From: Candidatus Zixiibacteriota bacterium
Lineage (GTDB): Bacteria > Zixibacteria > MSB-5A5 > GN15 > FEB-12
DNA length: 20,584 nt
Assembly (NCBI GenBank): GCA_041742355.1
Contig: JBGSIV010000185.1
Span: 1 to 20,584, forward strand
Direction of reading: 5' to 3'
In this document: one piece after another, positions 1 to 16,182 of the stretch
How positions within the stretch are numbered: the first letter of the stretch is position 1
Layout: each line of letters starts with the position of its first letter
Program-made: the position numbers and the translations under genes
The notes under the pieces: generated by a model
The model's input: only the letters and a program-made list of their open reading frames with translations
Told to the model about the DNA's origin: nothing
The model's database searches: none

Positions 1-290
1 GCCTGACCTACTTCTGACCTACTTCCTAGCAAGAAGAGCACTCGTATCGGGCTGCCCACAGCAGAGCTGTGGGTTACCTGTTCAAGGAGCCTGACCTACT
101 TCCAAGAGCAGGGTTTGTTCGCGACCGCTCGGGGGTGACGCAAGGCCACCCCCTACGCGCAGACAGGGCTGACCGTTCTATGCGGACGCAAGGCCACCCC
201 CTACGCGGGCGGGGGACAATATGCGCAATCGACGGACATCCTGTGCGGGCACAGGGGCACCGCCGACGCGGGCGGGGGGCCATATCAGGC
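1..290 (-). repeat. Cluster of REP-like palindromes and fragments, truncated by the window edge
   Basis: CCTGACCTAC-type ends at 2-11, ~15-22 and ~90-99. Hairpin GCCCACAGCAGAGCTGTGGGTTACC at 54-78. GTAG-tagged hairpin GGGGGTGACGCAAGGCCACCCCCTAC at 131-156, with a partial copy at 185-204 and a decayed copy 63 bp further on. Confidence 0.8.
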
Positions 291-367
291 GATCGTAAGG
301 CCGTCCAATGTGGTCGAAGAGTCGTTTCATGCTGGCGCCGGGGATGTCGGTCGCGGCGTGACGCATC

Positions 368-1018
368 GCCTCGTTGGGTTCGTTTGCGCAGTAGTCGCTC
401 GTTTATTGCTTGTCTCCCAGTCGGGTTTCTCGGGGTCTTCGACCCCTCGGAATTCGACCTACGCCCAAGCCTCGTTGGGTTCGTCGGCGCAGTTTCGCCT
501 CTGCGTTCATAGCTCTCCCCTGTCTTTCTTTCTGAGAGGAACCCACCATGAATGGCGGGCCACCGGAGGGGGCACCGGAAATTGGGTTCGTTTGTGCAAT
601 TTGCCTGTTTCCGTGTTTGTCCGGCTGTCAGGCCGCAAGCGGCCTGACCTACATCTAACCTATGAATTGGGTTCGTTTGGTAACTCACGGCATACGGTAG
701 AATCAGGCTTGACTGGGCCCCGGGCCAAGCCCGGGGTGACAGGAGGGGGAACTGGGTTCGTGGGCGCGTTTTCACCGGGGGTTTGTTCGTGGCCGGTCTT
801 TCTGTCCTCGTGCGTATCCTCCTAGCATACGGAAGGGTCAGGCTTGACTGGGCCCCGGGCCAAGCCCGGGGTGACAGGAGGGGGAATTGGGGTCGTGGGC
901 GCGTTTTCACCGGGTGTTTGTTCGTGGCCGTACTTCCGGTCCTCGTGCAGGTCCTTCCGGTCGTCGTGCGTATCCGTGTCAGGCTCCAAGGAGCCTGACC
1001 TACGGGTTGGGTTCGTTT
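368..1018 (-). repeat. Array of seven TTGGGTTCGTTT-type boxes (AAACGAACCCAA on minus strand), each interval holding one palindrome
   Basis: Box cores start at 374, 475, 582, 667, 752, 887 and 1007 (spacings 101, 107, 85, 85, 135, 120). The copies at 374, 582, 667 and 1007 match the 12-mer exactly; those at 475, 752 and 887 are degenerate. 368-392 and 469-493 match at 23/25. Confidence 0.85.
690..975. repeat. 135-bp tandem duplication containing one hairpin and one box per unit
   Basis: 690-820 and 825-975 are near-identical (GCATACGG...CAGGCTTGACTGGGCCCCGGGCCAAGCCCGGGGTGACAGGAGGGGGAA...GTGCGTATCC). The second copy has an extra internal 21-bp duplication. Confidence 0.95.
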
Positions 1019-2003
1019 CATCAGGTTCAGGTTTTCGTTCCGGGTCGGGTTTCTCGGCGCGATGCTCCAAGGGACACGGCCGATTGATTTCCAAGTCGGG
1101 TTTCTCGGTGCGACGCGCCTGGGGACACGGCCCGTCAATTTCCAAGTCGGGTTTCTCGGCGCTTCGCGCCTCGGACCCCGACCTACGACAATCGGAATAC
1201 GGTTCGCTGCCAGAGGAACTGCTGCGGAGGAGGTTGACCAGTGCATCGGCCTGGGCCTGTTCTCGGGCGGCCTCACGGTTACGTTCACGGGTGCGGGTGC
1301 GGACATAGGTATCGAAGGCCCGGAAGCGGCGGGCCTGGAGGCGCTCGAAGCAATCAAGGGCGCGCTGGAGCTGGCGGTCGATGGTGGTCTCGTAACGCAG
1401 GAGGGGCAGGAAGATATCCGCGGTGGGCAGGGCGTACTCCTGCCGAGTTGACTGAGGCAATTCGGGGACGGGGGCGGGAGCAGGGCGACCGGGCTCGGCC
1501 GGGAGGGCAGAATCGGTCTTGAGGGCGGAATCGGTCCTGAGGGCAGAATCGGCGTGGAGGATGGGGTCAGCCGGGACGGGGGATTCGCCTCGTTCGGCGC
1601 GTTGGCGCTCGGCCTGCTTGCGTTTGCGGACACCTTCGATGAATCTCCAGAAGCGGTCCTCCTCGGCCTTCTGGTCGGGCTGCTGGGGCTGGTAGCGTGC
1701 GTGGATGGCCAACGCCTCGGCCCGAAGCACCCGCTTGAGCCGCCAGTAGCAGGAAGCGATGCGTTCGACCTGCATGTCCTCGAGGGTGCCGACGGGGCAG
1801 AGCTCGCTGATGAGGTCGTGCAGGAGGGAGTCGAACTCCTCGGGGGATTCATCGTGCTCTTTGCCCTCAAGGATGATCGATTTGGCCAGGAGGCCGTGTT
1901 TGAGGGCGTTCATGCGGCTTCGGGCTTTCCCCTCGGCGGTGCGGGGGCCGGTGGAGTGTTGGGCGTTGAGGCGGTTTTGGGCGGTGCGTTCGTCGGGGGT
2001 CAT
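822..2003 (-). CDS. Uncharacterised protein of the NAxxSTGPRTxEGKxxSxxNALKHGL family, with a low-complexity, repeat-derived C-terminal tail
   Basis: 393-aa ORF with ATG and an AGGAGG Shine-Dalgarno at 2009-2014. Carries recognisable conserved blocks: NAQHSTGPRTAEGKARSRMNALKHGLLA, PVGTLEDMQVERIASCYWRLKR and LLRYETTIDRQLQRALDCFERLQARR. No catalytic motif recognised. Confidence 0.85.
   Translation of the reverse strand: MTPDERTAQNRLNAQHSTGPRTAEGKARSRMNALKHGLLAKSIILEGKEHDESPEEFDSLLHDLISELCPVGTLEDMQVERIASCYWRLKRVLRAEALAIHARYQPQQPDQKAEEDRFWRFIEGVRKRKQAERQRAERGESPVPADPILHADSALRTDSALKTDSALPAEPGRPAPAPVPELPQSTRQEYALPTADIFLPLLRYETTIDRQLQRALDCFERLQARRFRAFDTYVRTRTRERNREAAREQAQADALVNLLRSSSSGSEPYSDCRRSGSEARSAEKPDLEIDGPCPQARRTEKPDLEINRPCPLEHRAEKPDPERKPEPDETNPTRRSGSLEPDTDTHDDRKDLHEDRKYGHEQTPGENAPTTPIPPPVTPGLARGPVKPDPSVC
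1044..1186 (-). repeat. In-frame 51-bp tandem repeat derived from a GTAG-tagged palindrome
   Basis: GTCGGGTTTCTCGG starts at 1044, 1095 and 1146. The third copy continues as the intact hairpin ending GACCTAC at 1186. Encodes AEKPDLEIDGPCPQARR / TEKPDLEINRPCPLEHR / AEKPD. Confidence 0.9.
1503..1552 (-). repeat. In-frame 18-bp tandem repeat (DSALRT/DSALKT/DSAL)
   Basis: GAGGGC(A/G)GAATCGG at 1503, 1521 and 1539. Confidence 0.9.
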
Positions 2004-2176
2004 GCGGTCCTCCTACGTAAGTGTTTCTACTAGTGCGGACCGACCCTCAATCTCCATCGGTTTGGGGTTGATTTTGTCGGGAGAGGGAATGTTAAGTGGT
2101 GAGGGATAATGGTGATGGAGGGAATACGGGAGAAAAGAGGTAGGCCCGGGGGGAGATAAGGGGAGGTTGACGAGTG

Positions 2177-3078
2177 TGTCAGGCGGGGTCGCCTGAGACC
2201 ACACGGACAAACAAGTCTGTCCGTGGCACAGAAGAGATGAGGAGGTGTCAGGCGGGGACACCTGGCAGCACGGTCATAAACGCACGCATTGGGCACGGGT
2301 CGGTCCCGGCACATGTGGACATGTGCCGGGCACAGTTGCGTCGGGTTTCTCGGGAGCTTCGCTCCCTCGGAACCCGACCTACGGATGATGAGGAGGTGTC
2401 AGGTGGGGACACCTGACACCACGATCAGAGAGGACTGGATCCCGGGTCAAGCCCGGGATGACAGTTTCCATACGTCGGTTCAGGTCCGGGTGTCGGTTTG
2501 GGTCTGGGTGTCGGTTTTGGTATAGGGGTCGGTATGGATTTGGGTGGCGGTTCTGTTCCCGGCGTCAGCGTTGAGTCACTGTCAGGCTGCAAGCAGCCTG
2601 ACCTACAGAGGGAGTATTCGTATCGAGTTGCCCGCAGCAGAGCTGCGGGTTACCTCTTCAATCGGGTATGGTATTTCGGTCTGCCCGCAGCAGAGCTGCG
2701 GGTTACCGGTGACCTCTTTGAGAGGCACGACCGCTGAAGGGTCGTGCCCTACGTCGGACCGGTTCACACGATACCGATCCCACAGCAAGCTGTCGGCGAC
2801 CTGGTACTCAATCCTTCCACCGATCCCACAGCAAGCTGTCGGCGACCCGCCTGTGGTACCGGTTGATTAGGTCAATGGCAGGAGTCTGAGGGACTCCTGC
2901 CCTACAAAATTCGTATGTCCCGTCAAAACACATGGCACGACCGCTAAAGGGTCGTGCCCTACTTCTACTCACCTACTCCTATTCACCGACAAGAGAGATG
3001 GCACGACCGCTGAAGGGTCGTGCCCTACTTCTTCTCTACTCCTTCTCAGTCAAACACGCAGAGCCGTGTTCGACCTAC
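2177..3078 (-). repeat. Dense mosaic cluster of about 17 co-oriented REP-like palindromes of several families
   Basis: Hairpins start at about 2177, 2202, 2244, 2305, 2340, 2395, 2435, 2581, 2630, 2683, 2724, 2779, 2825, 2877, 2934, 3000 and 3049. Examples: GGCACGACCGCT(G/A)AAGGGTCGTGCCCTAC x3 (2724, 2934, 3000); exact 29-bp repeat at 2773-2801 and 2819-2847; CTGGATCCCGGGTCAAGCCCGGGATGACA at 2435-2463. Confidence 0.92.
2474..2551. repeat. Degenerate hexamer-periodic tract (NNNGGT)13
   Basis: gtcggt tcaggt ccgggt gtcggt ttgggt ctgggt gtcggt tttggt ataggg gtcggt atggat ttgggt ggcggt. GTCGGT recurs every 18 bp for four copies. Confidence 0.85.
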
Positions 3079-3794
3079 CGTTTCAGCCGGAGGGTCAGGA
3101 AGACCCAGGGGCGGATCATCGACCACCAGCCGGTGAAGGGGCGGATTTTCGAATAGTCGCGGCCGGACTCGGGGTAGACCATCGAGACGGGAGCTTCAGT
3201 CACGCGCCAGCCGCGTTTGACGGCTTTCCAGTGGAGGTAGTACTCCATCTCGTAGCGGCCGAGCCAGTTCTGATCGATGTTGATCTCGGGGTCATTCACG
3301 ATCGCGAGGCGGTAGGCGCGGAAGCCGCAGGTGATGTCGGTGTGGCGTTTGCCGAGGAGGATCGAGGCGATCAGGGTGAAGGCCTTGATGCCGTAGTGGC
3401 GGCCCATGGGGAGGTTGGGGCTGTCGCCGCCGGTGAGGTAGCGGGAGCCCTGGACGTAGTCGGCCTGATCCTTGAGGATGGGATCGAGGAGGCGGGGGAT
3501 TTCTTCGGGGAGCATCTTGCCGTTGCCGGCCATGATGACGAGGATTTCGTGGCCGTGCTCGCGGGCATATTTCACGGCAGTGCGGATGCCGGCGCCGACG
3601 CCCCGGTTGTCGCCGTGGCGGATCACGGTATACCCGCATTTGACGAGGTAGTCGCCGGAGCCATCGGTGGAGCCATCGTCGACAAAGAGCAGGTCGTACA
3701 GGCGGTCTTTGGGGAAGCGGTCGAGGAGGACGCGGAGCTTCTCCCCTTCGTTGAAGGTGAGAACGGCGGTGAGGGTTTTGGGTGAGGTGGTCAT
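3075..3794 (-). CDS. Glycosyltransferase family 2, DPM1-like (polyprenol-phosphate glycosyltransferase type)
   Basis: 239 aa with motifs TFNE, VDDGSTDGS, HGDNRGVGAGIRTA, VQGSRY and DITCGFRAY. The DxD position reads MAGNGK rather than MDADG. Confidence 0.93.
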   Translation of the reverse strand: MTTSPKTLTAVLTFNEGEKLRVLLDRFPKDRLYDLLFVDDGSTDGSGDYLVKCGYTVIRHGDNRGVGAGIRTAVKYAREHGHEILVIMAGNGKMLPEEIPRLLDPILKDQADYVQGSRYLTGGDSPNLPMGRHYGIKAFTLIASILLGKRHTDITCGFRAYRLAIVNDPEINIDQNWLGRYEMEYYLHWKAVKRGWRVTEAPVSMVYPESGRDYSKIRPFTGWWSMIRPWVFLTLRLKR

Positions 3795-3809
3795 GGTTGT
3801 GGTTTGTGA

Positions 3810-4310
3810 GAGATTGCTTCGTCGCTAAAGCTCCTCGCAATGACAGGTCCTGAGCGTTCGCGTCGCGTCAATGTCATGACCGCGAGGGTCCTGACCTACA
3901 AAAAGAGCATTCATGTCGTGCTTTCCGCACTCATTTCTGGTTACGCGCGGAGGATACGGAGGTGTCAGGCGGGGTCGCCTGACACCACAGTCATACCTAT
4001 TTTTTCTCTCTGTCAAGCACGCAGAGCCGTGCTTGACCTACCGGTCCGTCACCCTTCGACTCCGCACACAGCCAGCGGGCTGGTTGGGTGACGTCGAGTC
4101 GGCTCACAGCCAGCGGGCTGGTTGGGTGACGGTGGCAGGAGTCTGGGGACTCCTGGCTCCGTTGTTCTTGTCACCTATCCCACGGCAAGCTGTGGGCGAC
4201 CCGGTCTGCAAGAAGAGCATTTGTATCGAGCTGCCCGCAGCAGAGCTGCGGGTTACCTGTTCATCTCACCCTGTTCATCTCAGCGATCCCACAGCAAGCT
4301 GTGGGCGACC
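3810..4310 (-). repeat. Second mosaic cluster of about 10 co-oriented REP-like palindromes
   Basis: GAGATTGCTTCGTCGCTAAAGCTCCTCGCAATGACA at 3810-3845. Further hairpins at 3873-3899, 3961-3988, 4012-4041, 4134-4160 (decayed), 4179-4201, 4233-4257 and 4288-4310. Exact 27-bp repeat at 4067-4093 and 4105-4131. Confidence 0.92.
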
Positions 4311-4376
4311 CAATATTCGGTCATCGTATCACCGGTCAGCGCCGTTCCCGCCGTTTCCTCCCTATCCTCTCCCCTG

Positions 4377-4982
4377 TCAGGATTCGCAGACGAGGCGGTC
4401 GCCATCGAGGCGGTACACCAAACCGCACTCGCACTCGATGTGGGCGGTGAGGCCGTGGGCTTTCGCGGGGGAGATCGATCCCGGGTCGATGTCGAGCCGT
4501 CGGGCGCACTTGCACACATAGCCAACCATGCGGGCCGGGTTGCCATACCACATGGTGAAGTCGGGGACCTCTTTAGTCACCACCGCGCCGGCGCCAACGA
4601 AGGCGCACTGGCCGATATCGTGGCCGGCTACTATCACAGCGTTGGCGCCGATCGTCGCGCCGCGTTTCACCAGGATGCGGTCGACCTGATCGTGGTAGAC
4701 CTTGCTGCGGGGGTGGATGTCGTTGGTGAAGACGGCGCAGGGGCCGATGAAGACGTCGTCTTCGATAGTGACGCCGTCCCAGAGGGCGACGCCGTTTTTA
4801 ATGGTGACGCGGTCGCCGACGACGACGTTGTTTTCGATGAAGCAGTGGTCGCAGATGTTGCAATCGGCCCCGATGGTGACATTCTTCTGGACGTTAGTGA
4901 AGGCCCAGATGCGGGTGTTGGCGCCGATGTTCTCGGAGGCGCAGAGGGCCTTATCGTGGACGAAGAACTTCTTCTCGTTCAT
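4377..4982 (-). CDS. Hexapeptide-repeat sugar N-acetyltransferase (WbpD/WlbB/WxcM-like)
   Basis: 201 aa left-handed beta-helix repeats (IGANTRIW, IGADCNICDHCFIE, VFIGPCAVFTND, GATIGANAVI, GAGAVVTKEVP, GNPAR) and a C-terminal CxC...CxCG. Confidence 0.92.
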   Translation of the reverse strand: MNEKKFFVHDKALCASENIGANTRIWAFTNVQKNVTIGADCNICDHCFIENNVVVGDRVTIKNGVALWDGVTIEDDVFIGPCAVFTNDIHPRSKVYHDQVDRILVKRGATIGANAVIVAGHDIGQCAFVGAGAVVTKEVPDFTMWYGNPARMVGYVCKCARRLDIDPGSISPAKAHGLTAHIECECGLVYRLDGDRLVCES

Positions 4983-4985
4983 ATG

Positions 4986-5996
4986 TCAGCTCAACTCAAT
5001 ACACTTGCCGTTGGCCTTGATCGACCGGTTGGCGGCCTCGAGGATGCGCACGACGCGGAGGCCGGCGTGACCATCGGTCATCGGGGCGCGGTTTTCGTTG
5101 ATCGACTTCACGAACTCGCCCGCCACTTTCTTGAGGGCTTCGGTCAGGTCGATCTTGGGGGCGAGCATATCACCGGTGCGGTATTCGACGAGGATGTTGT
5201 AGATGTGGTCTTTGTCGCGGACAACATCCATGCCCCGGTCGTAGACTTTGATTTTCTCGGATGGTTCCATATCGTCGTAGATGACCATCTTCTTCGAGCC
5301 GGAGAGCAGGGTCTTGCGGACTTTGACGGGGGCGAGCCAGTTGACATGGATGTGGCCGAGGAGGTTATTGTCGTAGAAGGCGGTGACGTAGGCGATGTTT
5401 TCGATGTCGCTCTCGAAGTGGGCGACGCCGGTGGCGGCGATCGCTTTGGGGGTGCGGTCCAGGAGGTAATCCATGATGGAGACATCGTGCGCGGCGAGAT
5501 CCCAGATCACGTTGACATCGTGCTGGAAGAGGCCGAGGTTGACGCGGACGGAGTCGAAGTAGTACAGGTCGCCGAGGTCGCCCCTGTCGACGAGGCGCTT
5601 GATGGCCTGGACCGCACCGGTGTAGAGAAAGGTGTGGTCGACCATGACGCGGAGGTTGCGCTTTTCGGCGGCTTCGATGAGGCGTTCGGCCTGCTCGACG
5701 GTGGCGGTGAACGGCTTTTCGAGGAAGAGGTGTTTGCCGTGCTCGAGGACATCCATGCCGAGCGAGAAGTGAGTCGAGACGGGGGTGGCGATCACGACGG
5801 CGTCGACATCGGGCGAGGTGATGATGTCGCGGGCATCGGTCGACAGGGTTTTGATCGTGGGAAACGGGCGGGCGATGGTGGTGAGCCGGTCGCGGCGGAG
5901 GTCAGCGACGGCGGTCACGCAGACATCCGGCATCGAAGCGAAGTTGCGGATGAGGTTGGGGCCCCAGTAACCGCAGCCGATGACACCTATGTTCAT
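4986..5996 (-). CDS. Gfo/Idh/MocA family NAD-dependent oxidoreductase (nucleotide-sugar dehydrogenase type)
   Basis: Rossmann motif IGVIGCGYWG, IATPVSTH, GKHLFLEKP and WDLAAHD. Start placed at the ATG at 5996, with an AGAGGA SD at 6004-6009; the ORF track's TTG at 6002 is the alternative. Confidence 0.95.
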   Translation of the reverse strand: MNIGVIGCGYWGPNLIRNFASMPDVCVTAVADLRRDRLTTIARPFPTIKTLSTDARDIITSPDVDAVVIATPVSTHFSLGMDVLEHGKHLFLEKPFTATVEQAERLIEAAEKRNLRVMVDHTFLYTGAVQAIKRLVDRGDLGDLYYFDSVRVNLGLFQHDVNVIWDLAAHDVSIMDYLLDRTPKAIAATGVAHFESDIENIAYVTAFYDNNLLGHIHVNWLAPVKVRKTLLSGSKKMVIYDDMEPSEKIKVYDRGMDVVRDKDHIYNILVEYRTGDMLAPKIDLTEALKKVAGEFVKSINENRAPMTDGHAGLRVVRILEAANRSIKANGKCIELS

Positions 5997-6017
5997 GAGC
6001 AATTCCTCTTACGCATC

Positions 6018-6026
6018 AGTATACCA
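6018..6026 (-). promoter_or_regulatory. Putative extended -10 promoter (TGgTATACT) for the oxidoreductase-acetyltransferase pair
   Basis: Minus strand reads TGGTATACT about 20 nt upstream of the start codon. No clear -35. Confidence 0.45.
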
Positions 6027-6106
6027 GCACCTGACCATCGGGCTTAAGCTGCATCAGGAAGATGTTGTACCGTCCGGTCTGTTTTCCCGCGGCCGGCGAG
6101 AGATCC

Positions 6107-8227
6107 TCACAGCCGCGGGATTTGGTCGCTGGTTCGCGGAATATAATATGAAATCGCGGAATCGGACAAATAATTCACCGGGAGCGGGATGCGCGGGTCG
6201 CCTTGGTGGACGAAGCGCTCGATGGCGGTATTTCGCCAGGCGGGGATGAAGTGTTCGCCGGAGGCGGAGAATCGTCCCCAGAGGGTGATGTAGTTATTCG
6301 GTTCGGGGACCTGACGGTTGATGGCGACGCTGATATCGATGGAGCCGTGTTCGGCGAGGATGTCGCGGAGGACCGAGTCCGGGAGGGGCAGGAGGGCGTA
6401 CTGGCGGAATTCCTCGATGCCGAGCGGGATGAGCCGTCCGTAGTGGCGGTAGACCGGTTTGGGGTAGAACAGGTTTGACAGGGGGGGCTGGCCGCCGACG
6501 AATTCGAAGGACTTGTCGTGAACCTCGAGGGTGAAGGCGTTGCGGCGGCCGGCGCCCGAGTTGAGGTCGACGGCGATGACCAGCTGATCATCGGGGAGGA
6601 TCGGCTCGAGGTGCGAGATGTAGATGCGGGTGCCGGCTTTCATCTGGTCGGAGTCGAGTCGGCAGGAGAACTCGGCCCATTGGTCGCGGGCGAAGGAGTT
6701 GGAGGTCATGACGGCCGCGAGGATGGCTGTGGCAATGGCCGGGATGACATACCGGTTGAGGCGGAGGTGTCCGGCGATCGGCCGGAAGAGCAGAATGAGG
6801 CCGGAAGCGATAAGGGCAATTCGGATCAGGAGCGCTGCGCCGACGATGATCTCGCTGAGGCCGGTTCCGAGGAGGGCGTTGAGCCATTGGGGTTCCAGCA
6901 GCCAGCCCCCGAGAAGGAGAGCGAGACCGAGCGCGAATTCCCTGGCCGCGGGGTGTGTCCTTGATTTCAGGGTGTCGTGGGCGATGGATAGAAACCAGCC
7001 GGCGGTCAACATCATCATGGGTATCGCCTGGAAGCTGTAGCGAGAGATGGCGTGGAAGATTAGGTGGAGGGCGGTGTAGTAGCCAACAATCAGGAGCGGC
7101 CAGGCGGCGAGGGTCCGGTTGGTGCGGAGCAACAGGAGCAATCCGACGAGGCCGGCGACGATCAGGGCGAGGTGGAGGATTTCGCCGACCGTCCAGGGGA
7201 TTATGAAGGAGCGCTGGAAATCGTTGTAGGGTCGCCGCCAGAGGCGGTCGAGTTTTTTGACCATGAGGCCGATGTAGCCGTCCGGGTCGCCGGAGATTTC
7301 GGCCGAAACGGAGCGTTCCCAGAACCCCTCCTCTACCTTATCGAGATCATACCCCTCATAGAGCACCGAGGAGGACTGCAGGAGGTTGGCCTCGGCGTAT
7401 TTCGGGTCGCGCAGGGTGAGCTGGCCGAAGTGGGCGGAAGCGACGGAAAGCCAGAGGACGAAGATGACGGCGGCCGGGGTGGCGTAGATCAGGGCCATGC
7501 GTCCGAACGTGCGGAGATCGGAGGATCCGCGGGTGTACAGGTAGAATCCGAGCAGCAGCGGGAGGCCGAGGAGCATGGCGGTCGGTTTGTTCAACACGAG
7601 GGCGCCGGTTACGAGGCCCGCGAGAAGGAGGGGCCGGGTATGGCCGGTTTCGGAGCCGCGCATCAACAGGTAAATTGCCAGCAAAATCAGCAGGCTGGTG
7701 GAAGTCTCCAACAGCAGGAGGGTCGAGGTGAGGATGAACGGAAAGTAGAGAGCGTAGATGGCGCCCGCGACGAGGGCGCCTTTTCGTCCGACGAGGCGCA
7801 GGCCGATCAACATGAGCAGGAGATTGGCGGCGACATCGAAGCCGATGCCGAAGAGGCGGGCAACGGTGAAGTCGGCGACGGGTGAGAGGAAGAAGATAAT
7901 GGCCAGGACGAACGGGTACAGGGGGCCGCTGAAGAAGATCTCCTCGCGCGCTTCGGTGAGGGTGTGGGGGGTGTAGGAGAGCCACTCGATCTGTTCCCCC
8001 TGGATGTACTTCTCGTAGTAATCCTTGAAGCGGTAGCGGTCTTCGCGTTCGTCGGCGGCGGGCTCGGGTGATTCGACCAGTGAAATCAGGCCGATGCCGG
8101 CGGCGGCGTAGCGCCGGGCGTCCCACATGACCGGGAGGAGGTCGCCGAAGAGCAGGTAGCCCAAGCGCAGGACGATCGAAGCGATGAGGATGATGGTGAG
8201 GGCGCGGCGGAAGAGTGGGTCGGTCAT
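6107..8227 (-). CDS. GT-C fold membrane glycosyltransferase (ArnT/PMT_2-like) with a C-terminal soluble domain
   Basis: 706 aa with many transmembrane segments. Acidic WDARRY loop after TM1, followed by GPLYPFVLA, LLLET, LNKPT and a late SRY motif typical of this family. Confidence 0.85.
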   Translation of the reverse strand: MTDPLFRRALTIILIASIVLRLGYLLFGDLLPVMWDARRYAAAGIGLISLVESPEPAADEREDRYRFKDYYEKYIQGEQIEWLSYTPHTLTEAREEIFFSGPLYPFVLAIIFFLSPVADFTVARLFGIGFDVAANLLLMLIGLRLVGRKGALVAGAIYALYFPFILTSTLLLLETSTSLLILLAIYLLMRGSETGHTRPLLLAGLVTGALVLNKPTAMLLGLPLLLGFYLYTRGSSDLRTFGRMALIYATPAAVIFVLWLSVASAHFGQLTLRDPKYAEANLLQSSSVLYEGYDLDKVEEGFWERSVSAEISGDPDGYIGLMVKKLDRLWRRPYNDFQRSFIIPWTVGEILHLALIVAGLVGLLLLLRTNRTLAAWPLLIVGYYTALHLIFHAISRYSFQAIPMMMLTAGWFLSIAHDTLKSRTHPAAREFALGLALLLGGWLLEPQWLNALLGTGLSEIIVGAALLIRIALIASGLILLFRPIAGHLRLNRYVIPAIATAILAAVMTSNSFARDQWAEFSCRLDSDQMKAGTRIYISHLEPILPDDQLVIAVDLNSGAGRRNAFTLEVHDKSFEFVGGQPPLSNLFYPKPVYRHYGRLIPLGIEEFRQYALLPLPDSVLRDILAEHGSIDISVAINRQVPEPNNYITLWGRFSASGEHFIPAWRNTAIERFVHQGDPRIPLPVNYLSDSAISYYIPRTSDQIPRL

Positions 8228-8242
8228 GGTGAACGCCTGTCG

Positions 8243-9283
8243 TTACGACGCGGGCTGCGGGGGCATCGGGCCGACCTCGGAGGAGGCGGCCTCAAGCTCG
8301 AGCTTCCGCAGCGACAGGTGTTCTTTTTTGAGGAAATAGAACCCCATAAGGGTCACGACGATATACTGGGCGGCGTGGAGCACGAGGGCGCACGAGAGGG
8401 CGTCGGCCTTGGCGACGCCGTACTGCATGAGCGACCAGACGGCGCCGGCGTGGTAGACGCCGACGAAGCCGGGGGTGGACGGCACGAGAATCGAGATGGA
8501 CACGACGACCAGGAGGACATAAGCGGCGTCGAGCGGCAGGTCCAGGCCGAACGCGGCGAAGATGAAGATGTTGGAGAGGCCCATGAGCAGCCAGATGAGG
8601 AGGGTCTGCACGCCGACGGAGACGACGTTCCGGATGCTGGTGAGGAACTCGAGTCCCCGGGAGAATTTCAGGATGATGGCGGCCATCTTGTCACGGACGG
8701 TCAACGGCAGAAAGAAGAGGTAGTGGGTGAGCATGTAGCCGGCCTGTGATGGCCGGGCGGCTACGACTACCATGAAGACGATTCCGGCAATAGCGATGCC
8801 GATAGCGAGGTACAGGCCCCGCTCCATGGTGGACGTCATCGGGATGGGCGAGAAGTAGAGCACGCCGCCGAAAATGAGCAGGAGGGCCACAAGGTCGAAG
8901 ACCATGCGTTCGACGAAGATTGTGGCGAGGGAGGCTGATTTGGTGATGGCCCGGTCCTGGGCCGACAGGGAGTAGGCGCGGACGAATTCGCCGAGGCGCA
9001 GCGGAAGGACGTTGTTCGCCATGAAGCCGATGCAGGTGGCGGCGAGCAGGTTGTTGAACGGGACGATCTTGATTGGCTCGACCATGGCCCGCCAGCGCCA
9101 GGCGCGCTGGTACATGGTCAGCACGATAAAGGCGACGTTGGGCAGCAGCCACCAGTAATTGGCGCCTCGGAGTGCGGAGGCGAGGTCGGTGAAGTCGATG
9201 CGGTTGAAGAGCAGCCAGAGGAGGACACCCGAGACGAGGATCCCGATCACGATGTAGAGCATCTTCTTCGCTTGCAGCGTCAT
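8243..9283 (-). CDS. Lysylphosphatidylglycerol synthase TM / flippase-like membrane protein (UPF0104, AglD2-like)
   Basis: Motifs RAWRW, GFMANNVLPLRLGEFVRAY, IFVERMVFD and PSTPGFVGVYH. Start reassigned to the ATG at 9283, which overlaps the upstream TGA (ATGA coupling). Confidence 0.92.
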   Translation of the reverse strand: MTLQAKKMLYIVIGILVSGVLLWLLFNRIDFTDLASALRGANYWWLLPNVAFIVLTMYQRAWRWRAMVEPIKIVPFNNLLAATCIGFMANNVLPLRLGEFVRAYSLSAQDRAITKSASLATIFVERMVFDLVALLLIFGGVLYFSPIPMTSTMERGLYLAIGIAIAGIVFMVVVAARPSQAGYMLTHYLFFLPLTVRDKMAAIILKFSRGLEFLTSIRNVVSVGVQTLLIWLLMGLSNIFIFAAFGLDLPLDAAYVLLVVVSISILVPSTPGFVGVYHAGAVWSLMQYGVAKADALSCALVLHAAQYIVVTLMGFYFLKKEHLSLRKLELEAASSEVGPMPPQPAS

Positions 9284-10395
9284 GGCTTCTTCCCCACGAG
9301 GTTGCAGATCAAGGCATCGAACTCGCGACCGGCATTGTCCCAGCTGAAGGTGGCGGCCCATTCGAGGGCTCCCTGTTCGAGACGGCGGCGCAGCGGTTCA
9401 TCGGTCAGGATCCGGACGAGGCGGTCGGCCAAGGCGCTGGTGTCGCCATACGGGTACAGGAACCCGGTGCGGCCGTCGCGGACCGAATCGCGCAGGCCGG
9501 GCGAGTCGGCGGCAACGACAGTGGTGCCGACCGAGTTGGCCTCGATGTTGGTCAGTCCCCACCCCTCTTTGAGCGACGGCAGCACGGCGACATGGGCGCG
9601 GCGCATGCGATCGACTTTGTCGGCCACCGGGACGAAACCGGGGAATTCGATATCATCGGTCAGGCCGAGTTTGGCGGCCTGCGCTTTGAGCGGCTCAAGG
9701 TAATCGCCGCTGCCGACGATCATAAGGCGGGCATCGGGGATTTTGTCCTTCACCGTGCGCATCGCCGAGATGAGGTGCTGTACCGATTTGTACTTCTTGA
9801 TGCGGCCAAGGTAGAGCACGGTCGGGCGGTCGTACTTTTTGACCGAGGGGTCATGGGCGTAGGTTTTTCGGTCGATGCCGCAGTGGATGACCGAGATGTC
9901 TTTGCGCGGAACGCCGCGGGCGACGAGGTCATCGGCGGTCGATTCGGAGATGACGTTGAAGGGTCTCCCCTTGTAGACATAGACGACAGGGCGTTCGGCC
10001 AGAAAGATGTAGCTGGCCAGGACGGGATTGATCTCGTGGAAGACGGTGGTGGCGAAGAGGTGCGGGATGACCACGAGTGTCCTGAGGTTCAGGTACAGCG
10101 GCGTGTAAAACGGGATCTTGTTGATGTCTTCGATGAGCAGGTCGAAGCGGTTCTCGCGGGCGAGGCGTTTGAGGTGACCCGGGGCGATCAGGTTGAAATT
10201 GTAGCGGTTGCCGCGGCGGATGATGCGGATACCCTCGATGGTCTCCTCGGGTTTGCAGTGCGGGTAGCCGGAGCAGAACAAGGTGACCGAGTGACCGTAG
10301 GAGACCAGTCGCCGAAGGAGTTCTTCGAGGTGGACCTCCGCGCCGCCGGCGTAGGGGTTGGTCAGATCGTTCCAGTTGAGGGCGAGAATGTTCAC
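9280..10395 (-). CDS. Glycosyltransferase family 4 (GT-B)
   Basis: NPYAGGAEVHL, YLGRIKKYK and PSLKEGWGLTNIEA (EX7E). Start reassigned to the GTG at 10395, overlapping the upstream TGA (GTGA coupling). Confidence 0.95.
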   Translation of the reverse strand: MNILALNWNDLTNPYAGGAEVHLEELLRRLVSYGHSVTLFCSGYPHCKPEETIEGIRIIRRGNRYNFNLIAPGHLKRLARENRFDLLIEDINKIPFYTPLYLNLRTLVVIPHLFATTVFHEINPVLASYIFLAERPVVYVYKGRPFNVISESTADDLVARGVPRKDISVIHCGIDRKTYAHDPSVKKYDRPTVLYLGRIKKYKSVQHLISAMRTVKDKIPDARLMIVGSGDYLEPLKAQAAKLGLTDDIEFPGFVPVADKVDRMRRAHVAVLPSLKEGWGLTNIEANSVGTTVVAADSPGLRDSVRDGRTGFLYPYGDTSALADRLVRILTDEPLRRRLEQGALEWAATFSWDNAGREFDALICNLVGKKP

Positions 10396-13373
10396 CGGCG
10401 GGTTTCCCTGGTGAGATCGTCGAAGTTGATGCCCGCTTCGAGTTCGCGGAGGGCGCTCTTTATCTGCTGGTCGTTCGGGTTGAATTCCAGCCACAACTGG
10501 AGGGACCGTTTCATGCCGTTGACATCCCGGGTGCCGTAGTCCATGCGCATGAGTTCATCGAGCGCCCGGCGGTAGTCGTGGGTTGAGCGGATGATTTCCT
10601 CGAGGGTCGACCGTCCGGAGGCGGTGTCTCCCTGTCTCACCTGGGCGAGTCCGAGCAGGGTGCGCATCCAGTTGAGGTCGCCGTACGCGCAGGTATCGAC
10701 CAGCCGCTGCAGGTCGTCGACTCTCCCCTGCTGTTCGTAGACGCTGGCGAGATACTCCGGCAGGTCGCCGGCATACGGGATCAATTTCCATGCCCCGGCC
10801 ACCAGCTTCTCGGATGTGGCGACGTCACCCGCTTTGCGCAGGGTGTCGGCCACCATGAGGAAGCTGTTCCCGTAGTTGCGGGTGAGGCGCTCGGTGGCCT
10901 CGTCCTTGTAGACGTCGGGATCGGCGACGCCGCGGGCAAGGAACTGGTTCTGGAAGAAGTCGAGGGACGTCTCGACGTCGACGTTGAGCCGGCCGTGCGG
11001 TTCGCCGACGCGGAAGAGCATGCCGGTCATGGTCAGGCGGGAGTCGATCGGCTGGCCTCGGTAGCGCCGCACGCCGGAGCCGACGGTCACGGAGAAGTAG
11101 ATGGGGCGTTCCCCGTAGTAGCGGTCGATCAGGGCATCGATGACCATGTCCTGCAGCCGGTACACGGTGCCGTCGGAGGTGCGGTGGGGCCGAAGCTGAT
11201 CGATCTCCGCGTCGGTCCAGGGCAACTCCAGACCCATGGTGCTGCGGAGCTGCCTGACGTACCAGTTGGTATTGGCCAGAGAGAGGTTGACCACGAGAGC
11301 ATCGGTGCGGTTGCCGTAGGTCTGGTGGAGGCACCAGAGCGGGAAGGTGTCGTTGTCGCCGTAGGTGAAGATGATGCTGTTGGGTTCGGCGGAGTTGAGC
11401 AGGTTCATGCCGTAGTCGTAGGGGATGTAGTTGCCGGCGCGGTCGGTTAGGTGGTAATTGCCCGTGATCGCGACGATTGGGGTGGCAAAGAGGAGCATCG
11501 AAGCGGCGACAATCGGCATGCGTATGGCGGGTCGGTCGCGCAGGCTGTCGCGGAGGGCACCGACAAGGAAGGCCAGGCCGATGCCGATGGACAGGCCGAA
11601 GAGCACAAACGCAGAGGTCCAGAAGTAGTCGCGGTCGCGGACTTCGAGGTAGTCCTGGCCGGTGGTCGGGTGCTGCCGGGTGCCGTCGGCGAAGTTCATG
11701 TAGAGTACGAGGCCGATGGAGGTTAGCAGTAAGAGGAGGACCAGGATCAGGCCGGCCCGCGGTCGTCGGCGAAGCACTTCCCACGCGCCGAAGAGTCCGG
11801 CGAGCACGAAGAAGACGGAGGCGGGGCCTCGGGCGCCGTACTGCTCGTGGAAGAAGCGCCAGAAGCCCATGCGCTGGTAGCCGCCGAACTGGTTTTCCCA
11901 GGATCCGCGGCGGACGAACATGCGCTCGACCATGGAGACCTGGCCGTACTGCTTGCGATCGAGGAAGTCGATGGTGGCGCTGATGGTCTGGGGATTGTTC
12001 TCGTTGATGGCCGGTTCCTGACTGGCCCGGACGGGGATGAAGACGTTGATCGAGAAGCCGGCCACGGCGACCGCGAGGATGAGGAGGGCCGCTTTCCATT
12101 CGGGCAACACGCGCGCGAGGCCAAGCATCGTGAGAACCACCGCGGCCAGCGCAACGGCAAAGAGGAAGGGCTTGACCTCGACGATGATCAGCGAGACGGC
12201 CAGGATGGCGATGAGGATATCCCACCGGATGTAGCGGCGGATGAGCCAGGCGAGCAGGATCGCGGCGATGGCCGAGACGAGCAAGAACGGCTTGTAGCCT
12301 TTGAAGATGTGGAGCAGGCCGAACATGATGACGGCGGCGGTGATGAATCCAGCCGGTGCGAGCCAGGTGCGGGCGGCGTTTTCGGTGTGGCGGTGATCGA
12401 AGAAGATTTTGACCAGGTAGACGGCGGCGATGATGAGCCCCGAAAAAGCGAGGAGGCCGCCAGCGTTGAGCATGCCGGCAGCACCGCCGATGGATGTCAC
12501 GCGCTGCAGCAGGACGCCGTAGAGCGGGAGCATCGCGATAAGAAAGCCCAGACCGACCCAGAGATGGATCCTCGGGATGTCCTCGAAGGAGAAGACGTAC
12601 AGGAAGAAGAAGGCGGCCGCGATAGTCACCGGGATATAGAAGGGGATCTCGCCGGGCCGTGAGGAAAGGGCGAAGATCAGGTACAGTTCGGTGACGAAGA
12701 AGAGGCCGACGGCGTACCAGACCCAAGTCGGGCTGTCCTTCTTGAGCATGAAGAGGAGGGCCACGATCGGCAGGGCGATGAAGGCCATCATGTGGACGCC
12801 GACGCCAAGAACGGCGAGGAACACGGCAAGGAACATGAGGCGGTCGCCTTTCGGCGTGCCCTGGTGGTCGCGGTAGACGAGGCCGAGCCAGAATACGGCG
12901 AGCATGATGACCATGGTGAGGCCGTAGACCTCGGCCTCGACGGAGTTGTTCCAGTTAACGAGGTTGAAGGCGCCGAACAGGGCTCCCGAGATGCTTCCGC
13001 CGTAGACGATCAGGCGGCTGGTCCAGTCGGTTTCGGTGAACCACGAGCGCAACAGGCGGACGACAACCAGATAGCCGAACATGGCGGCGAAGGCGGATGA
13101 GACGCCGGAGAGGAGGTTGACCCGCATGGCCGGATCGGAAACGATGGGCAGCAGGGAGAACAGCCGTCCGAGCAGCACGTAGAGGGGCGATCCCGGTGGA
13201 TGGGGGACGCCGAGGATACTTGAGACGGCAATAAATTCACCGCAGTCCCAGAATGACAGGGTCGGGGCGGTGGTGATGGCGTAGAGTGTCAGTGTGAACA
13301 GCCAGACGGCTGCGGCGATGACAGCGTTGGTCCGGTCGAACCGGCGGGGATGGAGGATTTCGGTGTTGCTCAT
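10392..13373 (-). CDS. DUF2723 / TMEM260-like GT-C membrane glycosyltransferase with C-terminal TPR-like helices
   Basis: 993 aa with APTLSFWDCGEFIA, LGVPHPPGSPLY, AEVYG, EVRDRDYF and TYGDNDTFPLW motifs, numerous TM segments and a helical C-terminus. Confidence 0.93.
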   Translation of the reverse strand: MSNTEILHPRRFDRTNAVIAAAVWLFTLTLYAITTAPTLSFWDCGEFIAVSSILGVPHPPGSPLYVLLGRLFSLLPIVSDPAMRVNLLSGVSSAFAAMFGYLVVVRLLRSWFTETDWTSRLIVYGGSISGALFGAFNLVNWNNSVEAEVYGLTMVIMLAVFWLGLVYRDHQGTPKGDRLMFLAVFLAVLGVGVHMMAFIALPIVALLFMLKKDSPTWVWYAVGLFFVTELYLIFALSSRPGEIPFYIPVTIAAAFFFLYVFSFEDIPRIHLWVGLGFLIAMLPLYGVLLQRVTSIGGAAGMLNAGGLLAFSGLIIAAVYLVKIFFDHRHTENAARTWLAPAGFITAAVIMFGLLHIFKGYKPFLLVSAIAAILLAWLIRRYIRWDILIAILAVSLIIVEVKPFLFAVALAAVVLTMLGLARVLPEWKAALLILAVAVAGFSINVFIPVRASQEPAINENNPQTISATIDFLDRKQYGQVSMVERMFVRRGSWENQFGGYQRMGFWRFFHEQYGARGPASVFFVLAGLFGAWEVLRRRPRAGLILVLLLLLTSIGLVLYMNFADGTRQHPTTGQDYLEVRDRDYFWTSAFVLFGLSIGIGLAFLVGALRDSLRDRPAIRMPIVAASMLLFATPIVAITGNYHLTDRAGNYIPYDYGMNLLNSAEPNSIIFTYGDNDTFPLWCLHQTYGNRTDALVVNLSLANTNWYVRQLRSTMGLELPWTDAEIDQLRPHRTSDGTVYRLQDMVIDALIDRYYGERPIYFSVTVGSGVRRYRGQPIDSRLTMTGMLFRVGEPHGRLNVDVETSLDFFQNQFLARGVADPDVYKDEATERLTRNYGNSFLMVADTLRKAGDVATSEKLVAGAWKLIPYAGDLPEYLASVYEQQGRVDDLQRLVDTCAYGDLNWMRTLLGLAQVRQGDTASGRSTLEEIIRSTHDYRRALDELMRMDYGTRDVNGMKRSLQLWLEFNPNDQQIKSALRELEAGINFDDLTRETRR

Positions 13374-13431
13374 ATCTATTATAGGCCGGGAGGATCCCGG
13401 CGGACTAAGTCCTTGCCAGTCAAAACGCTTG

Positions 13432-13459
13432 AATATAAGGGATTTTTGAGCCGTGTAAA
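13432..13459 (-). promoter_or_regulatory. Putative sigma70 promoter for the glycosylation operon
   Basis: Minus strand TTTACA-N16-TATATT in an AT-rich patch about 60 nt upstream of the DUF2723 start. Confidence 0.5.
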
Positions 13460-13499
13460 GCCTGAATAGCGCGGAAAGTGGCGGGGGGCAACGGACCGG

Positions 13500-13534
13500 A
13501 ACAAAGAAACGGCGGGAGTCCAGGCTCCCGCCGT
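13500..13534 (-). terminator. Rho-independent terminator after the lipoprotein gene
   Basis: Minus strand ACGGCGGGAG-CCTGGA-CTCCCGCCGT (10-bp stem) followed by TTCTTTGTT, 30 nt after the stop codon. Confidence 0.85.
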
Positions 13535-13564
13535 GAGATCCGAGTATTGGTCGCGGCGATGGGA

Positions 13565-14782
13565 TCAGTCTTCAGGCCAGACCCGAACGGTATCGGGACC
13601 CCAATCGCAGTTGATGCTGCTTTCGCTGCGTCGCCAGGTTATCGGATTGATCAAAGGGAGGGGCAGGCGGATCGCGACGGTGGGGTTGAGGCCGGCAGCG
13701 TCATCGACTGGCGGGCAGTCGGCGGTCGGGACCATGACGGTGTAGTCGATGGTTGTGCCGGTGGCGCCGGATTCGATCCAGTCGAGCCAGACTCCCCCGC
13801 CCCAGTTGTGCTGGGCGCCGGCGCGAAGGATGACGACGGCATGGGTGGAGAAATCAACGGGAGGACCAAACGCATACCAGGGATTCTCCATGCCACCGCC
13901 CGGGATTGGGATGGTATCGGAGGTGACGCTGTCGATGTAGATGGTATCGGGGTACGACCAGCGGGCCGAGTCGCAGGACCAGGCGGTTTGCAGCCAGCGG
14001 GCGTAGGTCGCCGAATCGCGGATGACGGTCTCCCCCGCGCCGAGGTCACACGGAGCATCGGTGTAGTAAAGGGTCATAGGCTCGGACGGATCGGGACCCC
14101 AGGAGCAGGAGTACACGGTGTCGGCGCGAATCCACGAAACGGGTTGGGTGATCGGTTTGGGGATCACCACGGCGATCATCGGGGATGTGGGGCCATCGAC
14201 CCACAGGGCGAACATCATGGCGCAGGAGGAATCGAGTTCGGACACGGTGTAGCGGATGCTTGTCCCCTGTTCGCTGGTGGTCACGCCGGTGACCTGTATG
14301 GATCGGCCGAGGGCGGAGTCGTCTTCGAGGATGATGACGGCGACGGCCGAGCTGTCGAAATCGATTGCCGGCGGGGACCAATGGTAGGGATCGTCGGGGT
14401 AGACGGAATCGTAGACGCTCGAATCGTACATGGTGGAATCACCCGGGTCGACGAGCGAGTCCCATCCGGTCGCGGTGCATGAGTCGATAGCCAGCCAGAA
14501 GTCAGCGAAGGCGTCGGAGTCCTCGATGAGGAAATGGCCGGGCTCGCCGCAGGCGAACTCGGCGTAGTAGAGGGCCGGGTAGCCGTAGGCGGTATCGAAA
14601 TCGGGGAATTCCCAACCCGAAGTGTCCGGGCCCGAGCCGTACGGGTCGTTGTTTTCGTAGCGGCCGCCGCCGGCGAGCGGGGTGGTTGGACGGTGATCGC
14701 CGGTGGTTGGCGAGTCGCTGTCGCAGCCGAAGAACAGGATCAGGGTCAGCAAGAGACAACCGGCACAGATAACTTTGACCAT
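13565..14782 (-). CDS. Lipoprotein with two PrcB C-terminal-like domains
   Basis: 405 aa with a signal peptide ending FFG-C. Internal duplication: PPAIDFDSSAVAVIILEDDSALGRSIQVTGV...TSPMIAVVIP versus PPVDFSTHAVVILRAGAQHNWGGGVWLDWI...LNPTVAIRLP, matching the PxVDF...GxxI pattern of PrcB_C. Confidence 0.8.
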   Translation of the reverse strand: MVKVICAGCLLLTLILFFGCDSDSPTTGDHRPTTPLAGGGRYENNDPYGSGPDTSGWEFPDFDTAYGYPALYYAEFACGEPGHFLIEDSDAFADFWLAIDSCTATGWDSLVDPGDSTMYDSSVYDSVYPDDPYHWSPPAIDFDSSAVAVIILEDDSALGRSIQVTGVTTSEQGTSIRYTVSELDSSCAMMFALWVDGPTSPMIAVVIPKPITQPVSWIRADTVYSCSWGPDPSEPMTLYYTDAPCDLGAGETVIRDSATYARWLQTAWSCDSARWSYPDTIYIDSVTSDTIPIPGGGMENPWYAFGPPVDFSTHAVVILRAGAQHNWGGGVWLDWIESGATGTTIDYTVMVPTADCPPVDDAAGLNPTVAIRLPLPLINPITWRRSESSINCDWGPDTVRVWPED

Positions 14783-14864
14783 ATTTCCCCTCCAGACCGA
14801 TATCGATCAGGGCAGTGTGGAGTTCGTTTTACCATGTCACGGGAGTGCCTCGAGACACCCCTAC

Positions 14865-14892
14865 AGTATAACGCCGGGGCGAGTACTTTCAA
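14865..14892 (-). promoter_or_regulatory. Putative sigma70 promoter for the lipoprotein gene
   Basis: Minus strand TTGAAA-N16-TATACT about 80 nt upstream of the ATG. GGAGGGG SD-like sequence before the start. Confidence 0.55.
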
Positions 14893-15014
14893 GGGATTAT
14901 TGCGTTAAGGTGAAGCACCACAAGTGCGATTTGTCCATTTTCGCGGGATCAGGCCCCTTCACACCGAAGGGGCGGGGAGCGGCGGTTCTTCGGCCGATCG
15001 GGAACCGGGGCCTG

Positions 15015-15476
15015 CTACTGGTTCCCGGTGGATTCTCCGTTGCGCTCCGACCGTTTCACGTATGAGTCGAGGATGCCGTTGACGAACCCGGAGGATTCGG
15101 CGGTGGAGAATTTCTTGGCCAGTTCGATCGCTTCGTTGAGGATCACTTTGACCGGCGTGTCGCGGTGCTCATCGAGTTCGATCAGGGCCATGCGGAGGAT
15201 GACGCGGTCGATCGCGGCGATGCGGTTGATGTTCCAGTTGACCGCCAGGCCGGAGATCTTCTCGTTGGCCCATTCGGCGCGGCGGAGGGTCGAGGCGAAG
15301 AGCTTGCGGGCGAACTCGGTGGGGCCGTCGGGCAGCGTCTGCTCCTTCAGGAGCTCGGTCAGTGCCTCCTGCGGGTTGACAGTGCCGAATTCGGCGGAGT
15401 ACAGGGCCTGCAGGACCAGTTCGCGGGCGCGCCGGCGCGGCGGGTCGGAGGGGTTGTCGAACGGGCGATCGGGCAT
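15015..15476 (-). CDS. nusB: Transcription antitermination factor NusB
   Basis: RRRARELVLQALY arginine-rich N-terminus, IDRVILR, VILNEAIELAKKFS and FVNGILD. Confidence 0.98.
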   Translation of the reverse strand: MPDRPFDNPSDPPRRRARELVLQALYSAEFGTVNPQEALTELLKEQTLPDGPTEFARKLFASTLRRAEWANEKISGLAVNWNINRIAAIDRVILRMALIELDEHRDTPVKVILNEAIELAKKFSTAESSGFVNGILDSYVKRSERNGESTGNQ

Positions 15477-15517
15477 TATTGGTTTGCTCGGTTTTTCATG
15501 GTTCAGTTCGTGGGGGA

Positions 15518-15546
15518 AGGATAGAGGATGGCGGAGGAGAAGTCAA
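15518..15546 (-). promoter_or_regulatory. Putative dedicated sigma70 promoter for nusB
   Basis: Minus strand TTGACT-N17-TATCCT about 40 nt upstream of the nusB start. Confidence 0.6.
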
Positions 15547-15590
15547 GGGGGGGTGAGTCTTCGTTCGATGCGAGGGGCGGGGCGAACGGG

Positions 15591-16058: not shown

Positions 16059-16182
16059 GGGTACCCCGCTGCTTGCGTTGGGGGAAGATTAGGCAATTGG
16101 GTTTGTCCATCGCGATCAATAGGCCTGATCGACCCGCATACTAGTTGAGACGCGACCAGATCTCTCGGTACCTCTTCCCTGT

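Follow-up and report, generated by a model that had tools for sequence, protein, structure and literature searches.

A unit made of a promoter-like leader, a gene or filler, and a short asymmetric sequence, which we call the box, is present in many dispersed copies in the genome of a Candidatus Zixiibacteriota bacterium. One gene-bearing copy, followed by an array of boxes and hairpins, lies on the minus strand of contig JBGSIV010000185.1 (assembly GCA_041742355.1), whose 20,584 nucleotides constitute the window analysed here; the window is the entire contig (C185) of a source genome (G000) of 4.37 Mb in 310 contigs. The abundance of the box depends on the presence of the gene in a genome. Compared at the level of sequence, the leader resembles the promoter of the single-copy phage-head cluster of the host, and the encoded protein carries a module of phage small terminases and is modelled as a side-by-side oligomer. 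We propose, with slightly less than even confidence, that the unit is a minimal selfish packaging element, composed of a promoter copy, a small-terminase-like gene and a pac-like box, which would ride the gene transfer agent (GTA) of its host. To the wider proposal we give somewhat less than an even chance: that such units form a cross-phylum class of 'packaging-drive' elements, which would restore sequence specificity to otherwise random GTA packaging, be accompanied by gene-less parasites and expose GTA-like clusters in at least two phyla.

The leader, about 90 nt long, is common to both genes of the family in the source genome and to many gene-less arrays. A leader model gave 53 matches in the genome; 34 of the 43 with sufficient room have a box on the same strand within 1.4 kb and none has one in reverse, and a leader precedes 28 of the 45 arrays with enough upstream DNA. 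Some gene-less copies retain the ribosome-binding site (RBS) and start codon just ahead of the box. A complete element comprises one open reading frame (ORF) within ∼1.15–1.25 kb, and gene-less copies measure 100–300 bp. In three relatives (G012, G022 and G026) the boxes are mostly single, and many copies have the leader ∼100–130 nt upstream. The box is where tandem duplications end. The first-pass annotation of the window had offered, as one option, that the boxes are termini of a mobile unit growing by duplication or capture; this option fits in part, with the box as the end that stays fixed. In the source genome, C179 and C266 show one array headed by three leaders in tandem and another array with a leader nested inside it. 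At one and the same site (L188:1153 versus L104), G035 has a gene-bearing copy and G031 a gene-less leader copy.

Boxes at up to two mismatches number 187 in the source genome and form 55 same-strand arrays; 117 boxes are exact, and 51 clusters contain an exact box. The box had been regarded as tied to the gene beside it. Family genes number only two and 53 of the 55 arrays are without one, hence the box is not local to the gene in the window. In the paralog, on C113, in-frame boxes lie within the coding middle. The seven boxes originally reported in the window are indeed there, all on the minus strand (four exact, one with two mismatches and two with three; Table 1). At up to two mismatches the window holds 6 matches, five of them within the array, compared to 1.17 expected, and none of 100 shuffles reached 6. 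The six reported hairpins fold with energies of −12.8 to −18.0 kcal/mol and start 3–18 nt after a box. Their assignment to four families holds; not one but two of the families occur twice, as GTAGGTCAGGC at 627–652 and 978–1003 and as a 131-nt duplication (690–820/825–955). The denser palindrome cluster at about 2176–3070 has, as claimed, zero boxes at up to two mismatches. The proposed adjacency of boxes and hairpins exceeds chance: for 85 of 132 inner boxes in the genome one of 13 hairpin patterns starts within 30 nt, versus 33.5% (maximum 44.7%, 200 draws) for random positions within arrays. Five asymmetric hairpin patterns have a fixed polarity (31:0, 12:0, 11:0, 9:0 and 8:0), and two others are mixed (7:3 and 8:6).

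The hairpins had been described as variable cargo. They turn out to be a small library of repetitive extragenic palindromic (REP) units, reused in similar order across arrays; the order C-A-D-B-L is repeated on C55 and C289, to whose arrays positions 289–756 and 358–742 of the window align, respectively. According to the available part of PMC3733652, which also deals with bacterial interspersed mosaic elements (BIMEs) and REP-associated tyrosine transposases (RAYTs), GTAG/CGTC-tagged REPs have an unpaired tag, a short stem and many extragenic copies. The hairpins match this definition (tags GTAG, TGTC and GTGG; 8–9-bp stems in families A, C and D), and each family has tens of copies in the genome, located extragenically. 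By their tags, stems and copy number, the hairpins that separate the boxes count as ordinary REPs. Because they are reused and mostly occur away from boxes (31 of 101 family-B copies follow a box), the cargo is ordinary, whereas the box and what precedes it are not. The system recognized in the first-pass annotation is real, with its centre misplaced: the hairpins are incidental, and what matters is the box together with the leader and the head cluster. In 33 of 44 arrays the last box is followed by a convergent gene (our own gene calls), and the last box often abuts the terminator-like hairpin of that gene.

Box, gene and leader could all be by-products of REPs, with the box as a BIME-like linker and the gene and leader as passengers moved between REPs by RAYTs. 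The match of the hairpins to tagged REPs (as far as the available part of PMC3733652 defines them) would fit this explanation, as would five Y1_Tnp matches in the genome, the frequent location of elements between REPs with fixed polarity, and the many REP copies that are box-less. We nevertheless consider it very unlikely. At least ten hairpin families share a single box, and in phyla whose repeats are unrelated the gene is still followed by that box, often in one copy; box counts also vary with the gene (see below), and the leader is left unexplained.

The box recurs downstream of homologs in other phyla, as had been anticipated. GTDB supplied 79 loci, of which 77 make up a cross-phylum set (Acidobacteria, Planctomycetes, Verrucomicrobia, deltaproteobacteria and others); many of these are related and do not count as independent. 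The top de novo word downstream of the gene in this set was AACGAACC, present in the sense orientation in 41 of the 77 loci, versus 4 antisense and 3 upstream. A degenerate box core was present in 54 loci, with a peak 500–1000 nt after the STGP motif, and 34 loci had a single box. The consensus is approximately TTRCSAA-ACRAASCCA-ATT. A signal at the peptide level was ruled out: 56 in-ORF matches were split 23/10/23 over the frames and 37 were outside ORFs. Since the box occurs in all three frames, inside and outside ORFs, it is a nucleic-acid signal, most simply on DNA. Some Phycisphaerae and Acidobacteria have an additional, reverse copy of the box within the gene, facing away from the forward box ∼120–340 nt downstream (L043, L045, L048, L055, L056, L059, L060, L062, L074, L080, L081, L095 and L098).

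These data also bear on the earlier option that the transcript is cut into small hairpin RNAs. A leader-driven transcript might be cut or bound at the boxes by the protein, in a CRISPR-like or antitermination-like manner; all boxes of an array have the orientation of the leader, and their sequence is A/C-rich and unstructured. The option found no support here and is highly improbable: the cargo is reused REP sequence at spacings of ∼9–390 nt, most relatives have single boxes, in-gene boxes on the reverse strand occur in other phyla, and Rfam yielded only a chance miRNA match (E 0.5) in positions 1–4400 of the window and none in 20 loci.

The predicted link between the box and the protein family was assessed in 151 genomes of the phylum, in which kin are not independent. 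The gene was found in 53 of them, with up to 7 matches per genome. The median box count was 35 with the gene and 4 without, and at least 15 boxes were present in 40 of the 53 genomes with the gene versus 5 of the 98 without. Within the host family the medians were similar (37 versus 4). Within genera, 9 contrasts agree, 4 disagree and 1 is a tie (our count from the tables), and sister genomes differ, with 0 versus 44 boxes.

The element is also multi-copy outside the phylum. Two close Bryobacterales genomes each have ∼19 dispersed copies with 92–97% identity, defined edges and mostly unrelated flanks. The ratio of nonsynonymous to synonymous polymorphism (pN/pS) among 37 open copies was 0.32 pooled (median 0.14), and broken copies of the family gene with internal stops occur. 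At eight sites the flank on the box side is common to both genomes, and the leader-side flank is common as well in just one; repeats crowd the leader side, and the asymmetry is therefore no proof of direction. The dispersed copies, with their defined edges and mostly unrelated flanks, would suit a new transposable element, in which the leader-to-box unit would be mobilised by the protein, acting on its own or together with a host nuclease, the box being a fixed end in a one-ended or rolling-circle-like process and the promoter likeness a matter of borrowed regulation. The patchy presence of the gene, the gene-less miniature copies that retain both ends, the tandem duplications ending at the box and the fixed polarity towards REPs point the same way. 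On the other hand, no match to transposase, HUH or recombinase families was found in scans of Pfam, NCBIfam, PHROG and sequences of solved structures; visual inspection of 11 aligned and 38 listed copies revealed neither terminal inverted repeats nor target duplications; and five tries gave no clean empty site. A tyrosine recombinase with a conserved R, K, H, R, Y set was considered and dropped: no such fold turned up, and the candidate catalytic residues R91 and Y204 lie in the modelled subunit interface. Overall, we regard a transposable element as unlikely. A role of the box as iteron or origin was likewise rejected: a perfect 9-mer, which we take to be DnaA-type, lies 66–67 nt after the box in 27 of 30 sites of G026 and 3 of 9 of G012 (loci L118–L167), but in none of the 28 sites of G022, and thus is not general.

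The family of the protein comprises 23,276 clusters at 50% identity (E≤0.001). The window protein has no match in Pfam, none to NCBIfam families at E≤1 and none to a PHROG family; 11 family members gave no match to PHROG small terminases (TerS), and searches by sequence gave no solved relative. INPHARED contained no phage match, and five plasmid records matched. A likeness to the HGGxSTG domain, presumably a Cys-rich motif with an NCBIfam model, had been suggested and was not borne out, there being no NCBIfam match and no HGG ahead of STG. The suggested N-terminal resemblance to small terminases was borne out: HHalign gave 99% (E ∼4e-18) to four phage proteins encoded before a large terminase (TerL) gene. 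Five viral loci match only the first 45 residues, and their genes directly precede a large gene; of these large genes two were scanned, both matching phrog_2 TerL, and of the three small genes scanned one exceeds the Terminase_4 cut-off. At L113–L117 and L260–L262, a phage small-terminase family was seen that has the same N-terminal module, a four-cysteine segment and a Terminase_4-like C-terminus. Neither family gene of the source genome adjoins TerL, as its only phrog_2 TerL is at C120:1724–3097 and the family genes are elsewhere.

Structure models of family proteins are confident and all-helical (predicted local distance difference test, pLDDT, 84 and 89). A four-copy model forms a head-to-tail (side-by-side) oligomer with a score of 0.59, the best of three controls being 0.00; the mark for this score, attained by 20 of the 30 solved pairs and by 1 of the 23 single chains, was calibrated on two copies, unlike the four-copy job. 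The runs agree in at least 48% of contacts, with a partner pLDDT of at least 60, and the invariant R91 and the tyrosine of the RYE motif (Y204) lie at the modelled subunit interface. The shared module and the modelled oligomer suggest the build of a small terminase, although neither the position of the gene nor its profile places the protein in that class. Foldseek gave no significant match, and the best VIA hits (Z 7.9 and 7.5) are generic hairpins, a result that implies neither a new fold nor the absence of a terminase fold. In the ESM Atlas, unnamed clusters scored 0.93–0.94 and the named SEC-C clusters at most 0.81. Among the options of the first-pass annotation, that of the box as a binding site of the encoded protein fits best.

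Sequence comparison of the leaders pointed to the head genes of the host. The best non-self match of the window leader in the genome (blastn) is on C282, 27/28 nt, ahead of a portal N-terminus, and that of the paralog leader is on C120, 35/35, ahead of a protease-like gene (a prohead protease by our reading; PHROG assigns a family of unknown function). Both matches were found before any leader model was built. The portal and protease-like genes flank the only phrog_2 TerL of the genome. A model built from array leaders only scored the portal promoter at 14.2 and the protease-like promoter at 18.2, with the next sites on those contigs at −5.6 and −10.1. Likewise, in 4 of 4 20-kb loci the site ahead of the head operon came out on top under a model built only from leaders of acidobacterial elements (scores 12.0–17.7); the nulls for this model peaked at 8.3–12.3 in five chunks and at 21.8–43.5 in four, the latter probably real leaders.

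TerL is present in 144 of the 151 genomes of the phylum, once each save two split cases, and its identity falls with taxonomic distance (∼57–68% within the family, 38–49% in the rest of the class). The surrounding head cluster is syntenic and includes portal, TerL, decoration, major head and an Ig-like tail match; visual inspection of the genes listed for twelve 20-kb loci, with a scan of 17 proteins, gave portal and TerL in 12 of 12 and a capsid in 9 of 12. In the source genome the cluster is located at C120:1–4017 and C282:1–255, and in relatives at L276–L287. A candidate native small terminase, a gene of 74–139 aa without a match to terminase families, directly precedes TerL in G100. In one of six such genes (L278:17528, G021) a box-like word lies right after the stop of the candidate and overlaps the next start. 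Four acidobacterial genomes have their own syntenic TerL-portal-capsid cluster (L293–L296), ordered differently, with several copies broken by insertion sequence (IS)-like genes; at L111:4437–5341, an element lies divergently, directly ahead of an acidobacterial-type head operon. A weak leader match at L298:291–743 (C157) lies ahead of a 151-aa phrog_3108 protein, which we take to be lysozyme-like and which is possibly a lysis gene of the regulon. The open-access literature searched, taken without supplements, yielded no paper on a GTA in Zixibacteria or on a GTA small terminase in Acidobacteria. The host head cluster is a GTA-like, single-copy and conserved locus.

The packaging element proposed at the outset would work as follows. 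The gene of the element would be switched on together with GTA-like particles. Its product would form a small-terminase-like ring on the ∼20-bp box and recruit the large terminase of the host, so that packaging would start at the boxes; left to the short small subunit of the host, it would be random. Element-bearing DNA would be over-transmitted, a drive resembling that of a phage satellite reduced to terS and pac, and the gene-less copies would be freeloaders. Arrays may arise as box-bearing ends multiply beside REP hairpins, after which unit blocks would be copied or converted between loci; the insertion step may need a RAYT or end-joining.

Several points weigh against this proposal. A packaging bias alone creates no new insertion sites, and the GTA activity of the host cluster is putative. 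The promoter likeness is uneven: two further acidobacterial loci rank the operon site 3rd and 4th, the own-genome leader models of G022 and G026 miss their own head promoters, and a pooled model, with intergenic bias uncontrolled, placed only 6 of 20 head-gene upstream regions in the top 5% (four of these six sites keep a constant distance from the protease-like gene, at −61 to −66 nt). In G031, which has 19 copies, the queries used matched neither a TerL nor a capsid, although both are found in its close relative G035. To these are added the five gene-less genomes with at least 15 boxes and the four of 14 within-genus contrasts that go in the wrong direction. As for the protein, the HHalign match ends after 46–48 columns, and the window protein is without the C-terminal strand motif found in 92 of 264 homologs. 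The resemblance in structure to terminases falls short of significance (BFVD ranks 3, 4, 5 and 10 at E 0.3–0.7, TerS rows to 1.1); HK97 TerS, to which there is no sequence match, aligned with Z 7.2 over 103 residues (root-mean-square deviation 5.0), tied with unrelated hairpins.

The same promoter, the TerS-like module and the purifying selection could also reflect an accessory small terminase or regulator useful to the host, with the boxes as preferred packaging starts or anchoring sites, that is, a domesticated rather than a selfish system. The distribution speaks against this: where TerL is single and near-universal, the gene is scattered and often repeated (found in 53 of 151 genomes, with up to 7 matches), sister genomes differ in box count (0 versus 44), and broken copies occur. 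We therefore consider a domesticated factor quite unlikely.

GTAs are thought to package DNA nearly at random; the reason for the persistence of machines so selfless is an open question, as is whether they are cheated. The element supplies a protein, a 20-bp site and a promoter for a direct test of GTA cheating. If the packaging element proves true, a very large unannotated family would gain a function, the spurious NEPN/TNPI/KRTQ tails seen on many hypothetical proteins would be accounted for, and attention would be drawn to a GTA-like cluster that spans the phylum and was not found in the literature searched. If the packaging idea fails, a widespread multi-copy element without a known transposase is still left.

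The features of the element in the window are listed in Table 1. The ORF is real; residues beyond ∼235 form a low-complexity tail, translated through the repeats. Public contigs of run X1 are letter-identical to positions 55–445, 423–516, 487–654, 1146–1926 and 1899–2369, and those of run X2 to 752–877 and 977–1395; no contig of either run covers the whole stretch. Run X1 may be the source sample, and joints in public contigs are indistinguishable from paralogous arrays. The remainder of the window (3075–20547) holds ordinary neighbours: a GT2 glycosyltransferase and NusB (Pfam) and, by eye, sugar-modification genes, riboflavin genes and an ABC permease of lower GC.

Table 1. Features of the element and its surroundings, in coordinates of the window.
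Feature	Position	Strand	Basis
Leader, promoter-like 5' end of the element including RBS	2004..2088	-	leader-model match; near-copy of portal-gene promoter (blastn 27/28 nt, contig C282)
393-aa gene, unclassified all-helical family (STGPRT...KHG / WRLxR / RYE)	822..2003	-	no Pfam, NCBIfam or PHROG match
N-terminal module, residues 2-47, common with phage small terminases; putative DNA-recognition part	1863..2000	-	HHalign 99%, E ∼4e-18, 46-48 columns
Helices 54-68 and 73-104 of predicted oligomerisation core	1692..1844	-	AlphaFold model, mean pLDDT 84; interface residues
Helix 195-234 with RYE motif, second half of predicted core	1302..1421	-	structure model
Three 51-nt copies of REP half-unit in coding tail	1038..1190	-	repeat family D3
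Box 1, exact, within ORF	1007..1018	-	motif match
GTAG-tagged REP hairpin, family A	978..1003	-	folding
Box 2, 3 mismatches, within ORF	887..898	-	motif match
TGTC-tagged REP hairpin, family C, within 131-nt duplication	848..876	-	folding and repeat comparison
Box 3, 3 mismatches	752..763	-	motif match
TGTC-tagged REP hairpin, family C	713..741	-	folding
Box 4, exact	667..678	-	motif match
GTAG-tagged REP hairpin, family A	627..652	-	folding
Box 5, exact	582..593	-	motif match
GTGG-tagged REP-like hairpin, family D	541..564	-	folding
Box 6, 2 mismatches	475..486	-	motif match
GTAG-tagged REP hairpin, family B	420..462	-	folding
Box 7, exact	374..385	-	motif match
Further unit, family L hairpins, of the type found after B units in other arrays; contig stops at base 1	130..373	-	repeat comparison
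Box-less REP cluster upstream of leader, same hairpin families, outside the element	2176..3070	.	repeat and box scan

Insertion sequences and their miniature inverted-repeat transposable element (MITE) derivatives occur as autonomous and miniature copies with both ends kept, and are patchy and multi-copy. The element is alike in all these respects; it differs in that no transposase domain, terminal inverted repeat or target duplication was found. DNA uptake sequences are short asymmetric motifs with thousands of copies. The box, too, is asymmetric, could accumulate via biased DNA transfer and occurs in ORFs in any frame, but it is present in tens of copies, always in the leader-box unit, and is linked to a terminase-like gene. 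Compared to an array of clustered regularly interspaced short palindromic repeats (CRISPR), the units are uneven (∼9–390 nt), draw on a reused REP library and lack unique spacers. The six hairpins of the window share the tags, stems and extragenic multi-copy nature of GTAG/CGTC-tagged REPs; a constant box across many REP families, tied to a non-RAYT gene, is not met with in the available part of PMC3733652. Searches of the open-access literature (without supplements) for the box string, the peptide motifs, HGGxSTG and MITEs in Zixibacteria gave nothing relevant, and we hold the gene-plus-box system, as the first-pass annotation did its gene-plus-array system, to be undescribed.

Phage satellites, small terminases and GTAs are among the closest known parallels to the packaging element proposed here; the precedents set by SaPIs and RcGTA are partial. 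[quoted passage not shown] Like them, the element would be a parasite redirecting foreign capsids to its own packaging site. In contrast to SaPIs and other PICIs, it has no integrase, att sites, replication or regulatory genes, measures ∼1.2 kb or 100–300 bp and exists in many copies per genome, and its helper would be a domesticated host cluster rather than a phage. With P27-type small terminases (Terminase_4, PF05119; L113–L117) the protein shares the N-terminal module of 46–48 residues, a helical core and a predicted side-by-side oligomer; it differs in having no Terminase_4 match, no detectable homology past the module and no place beside TerL. The small terminase gp1 of the Rhodobacter capsulatus GTA (RcGTA) is without a DNA-binding domain at the N-terminus, which its authors propose as the explanation for random packaging (PMC6854486, as far as the available part goes). 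As in RcGTA, the host of the element has one head cluster, inherited vertically, in which a short gene is the TerS candidate. Unlike the RcGTA protein, as described in that part of the source, the family of the element has a putative module of this kind, with a cognate box, and sits away from the cluster.

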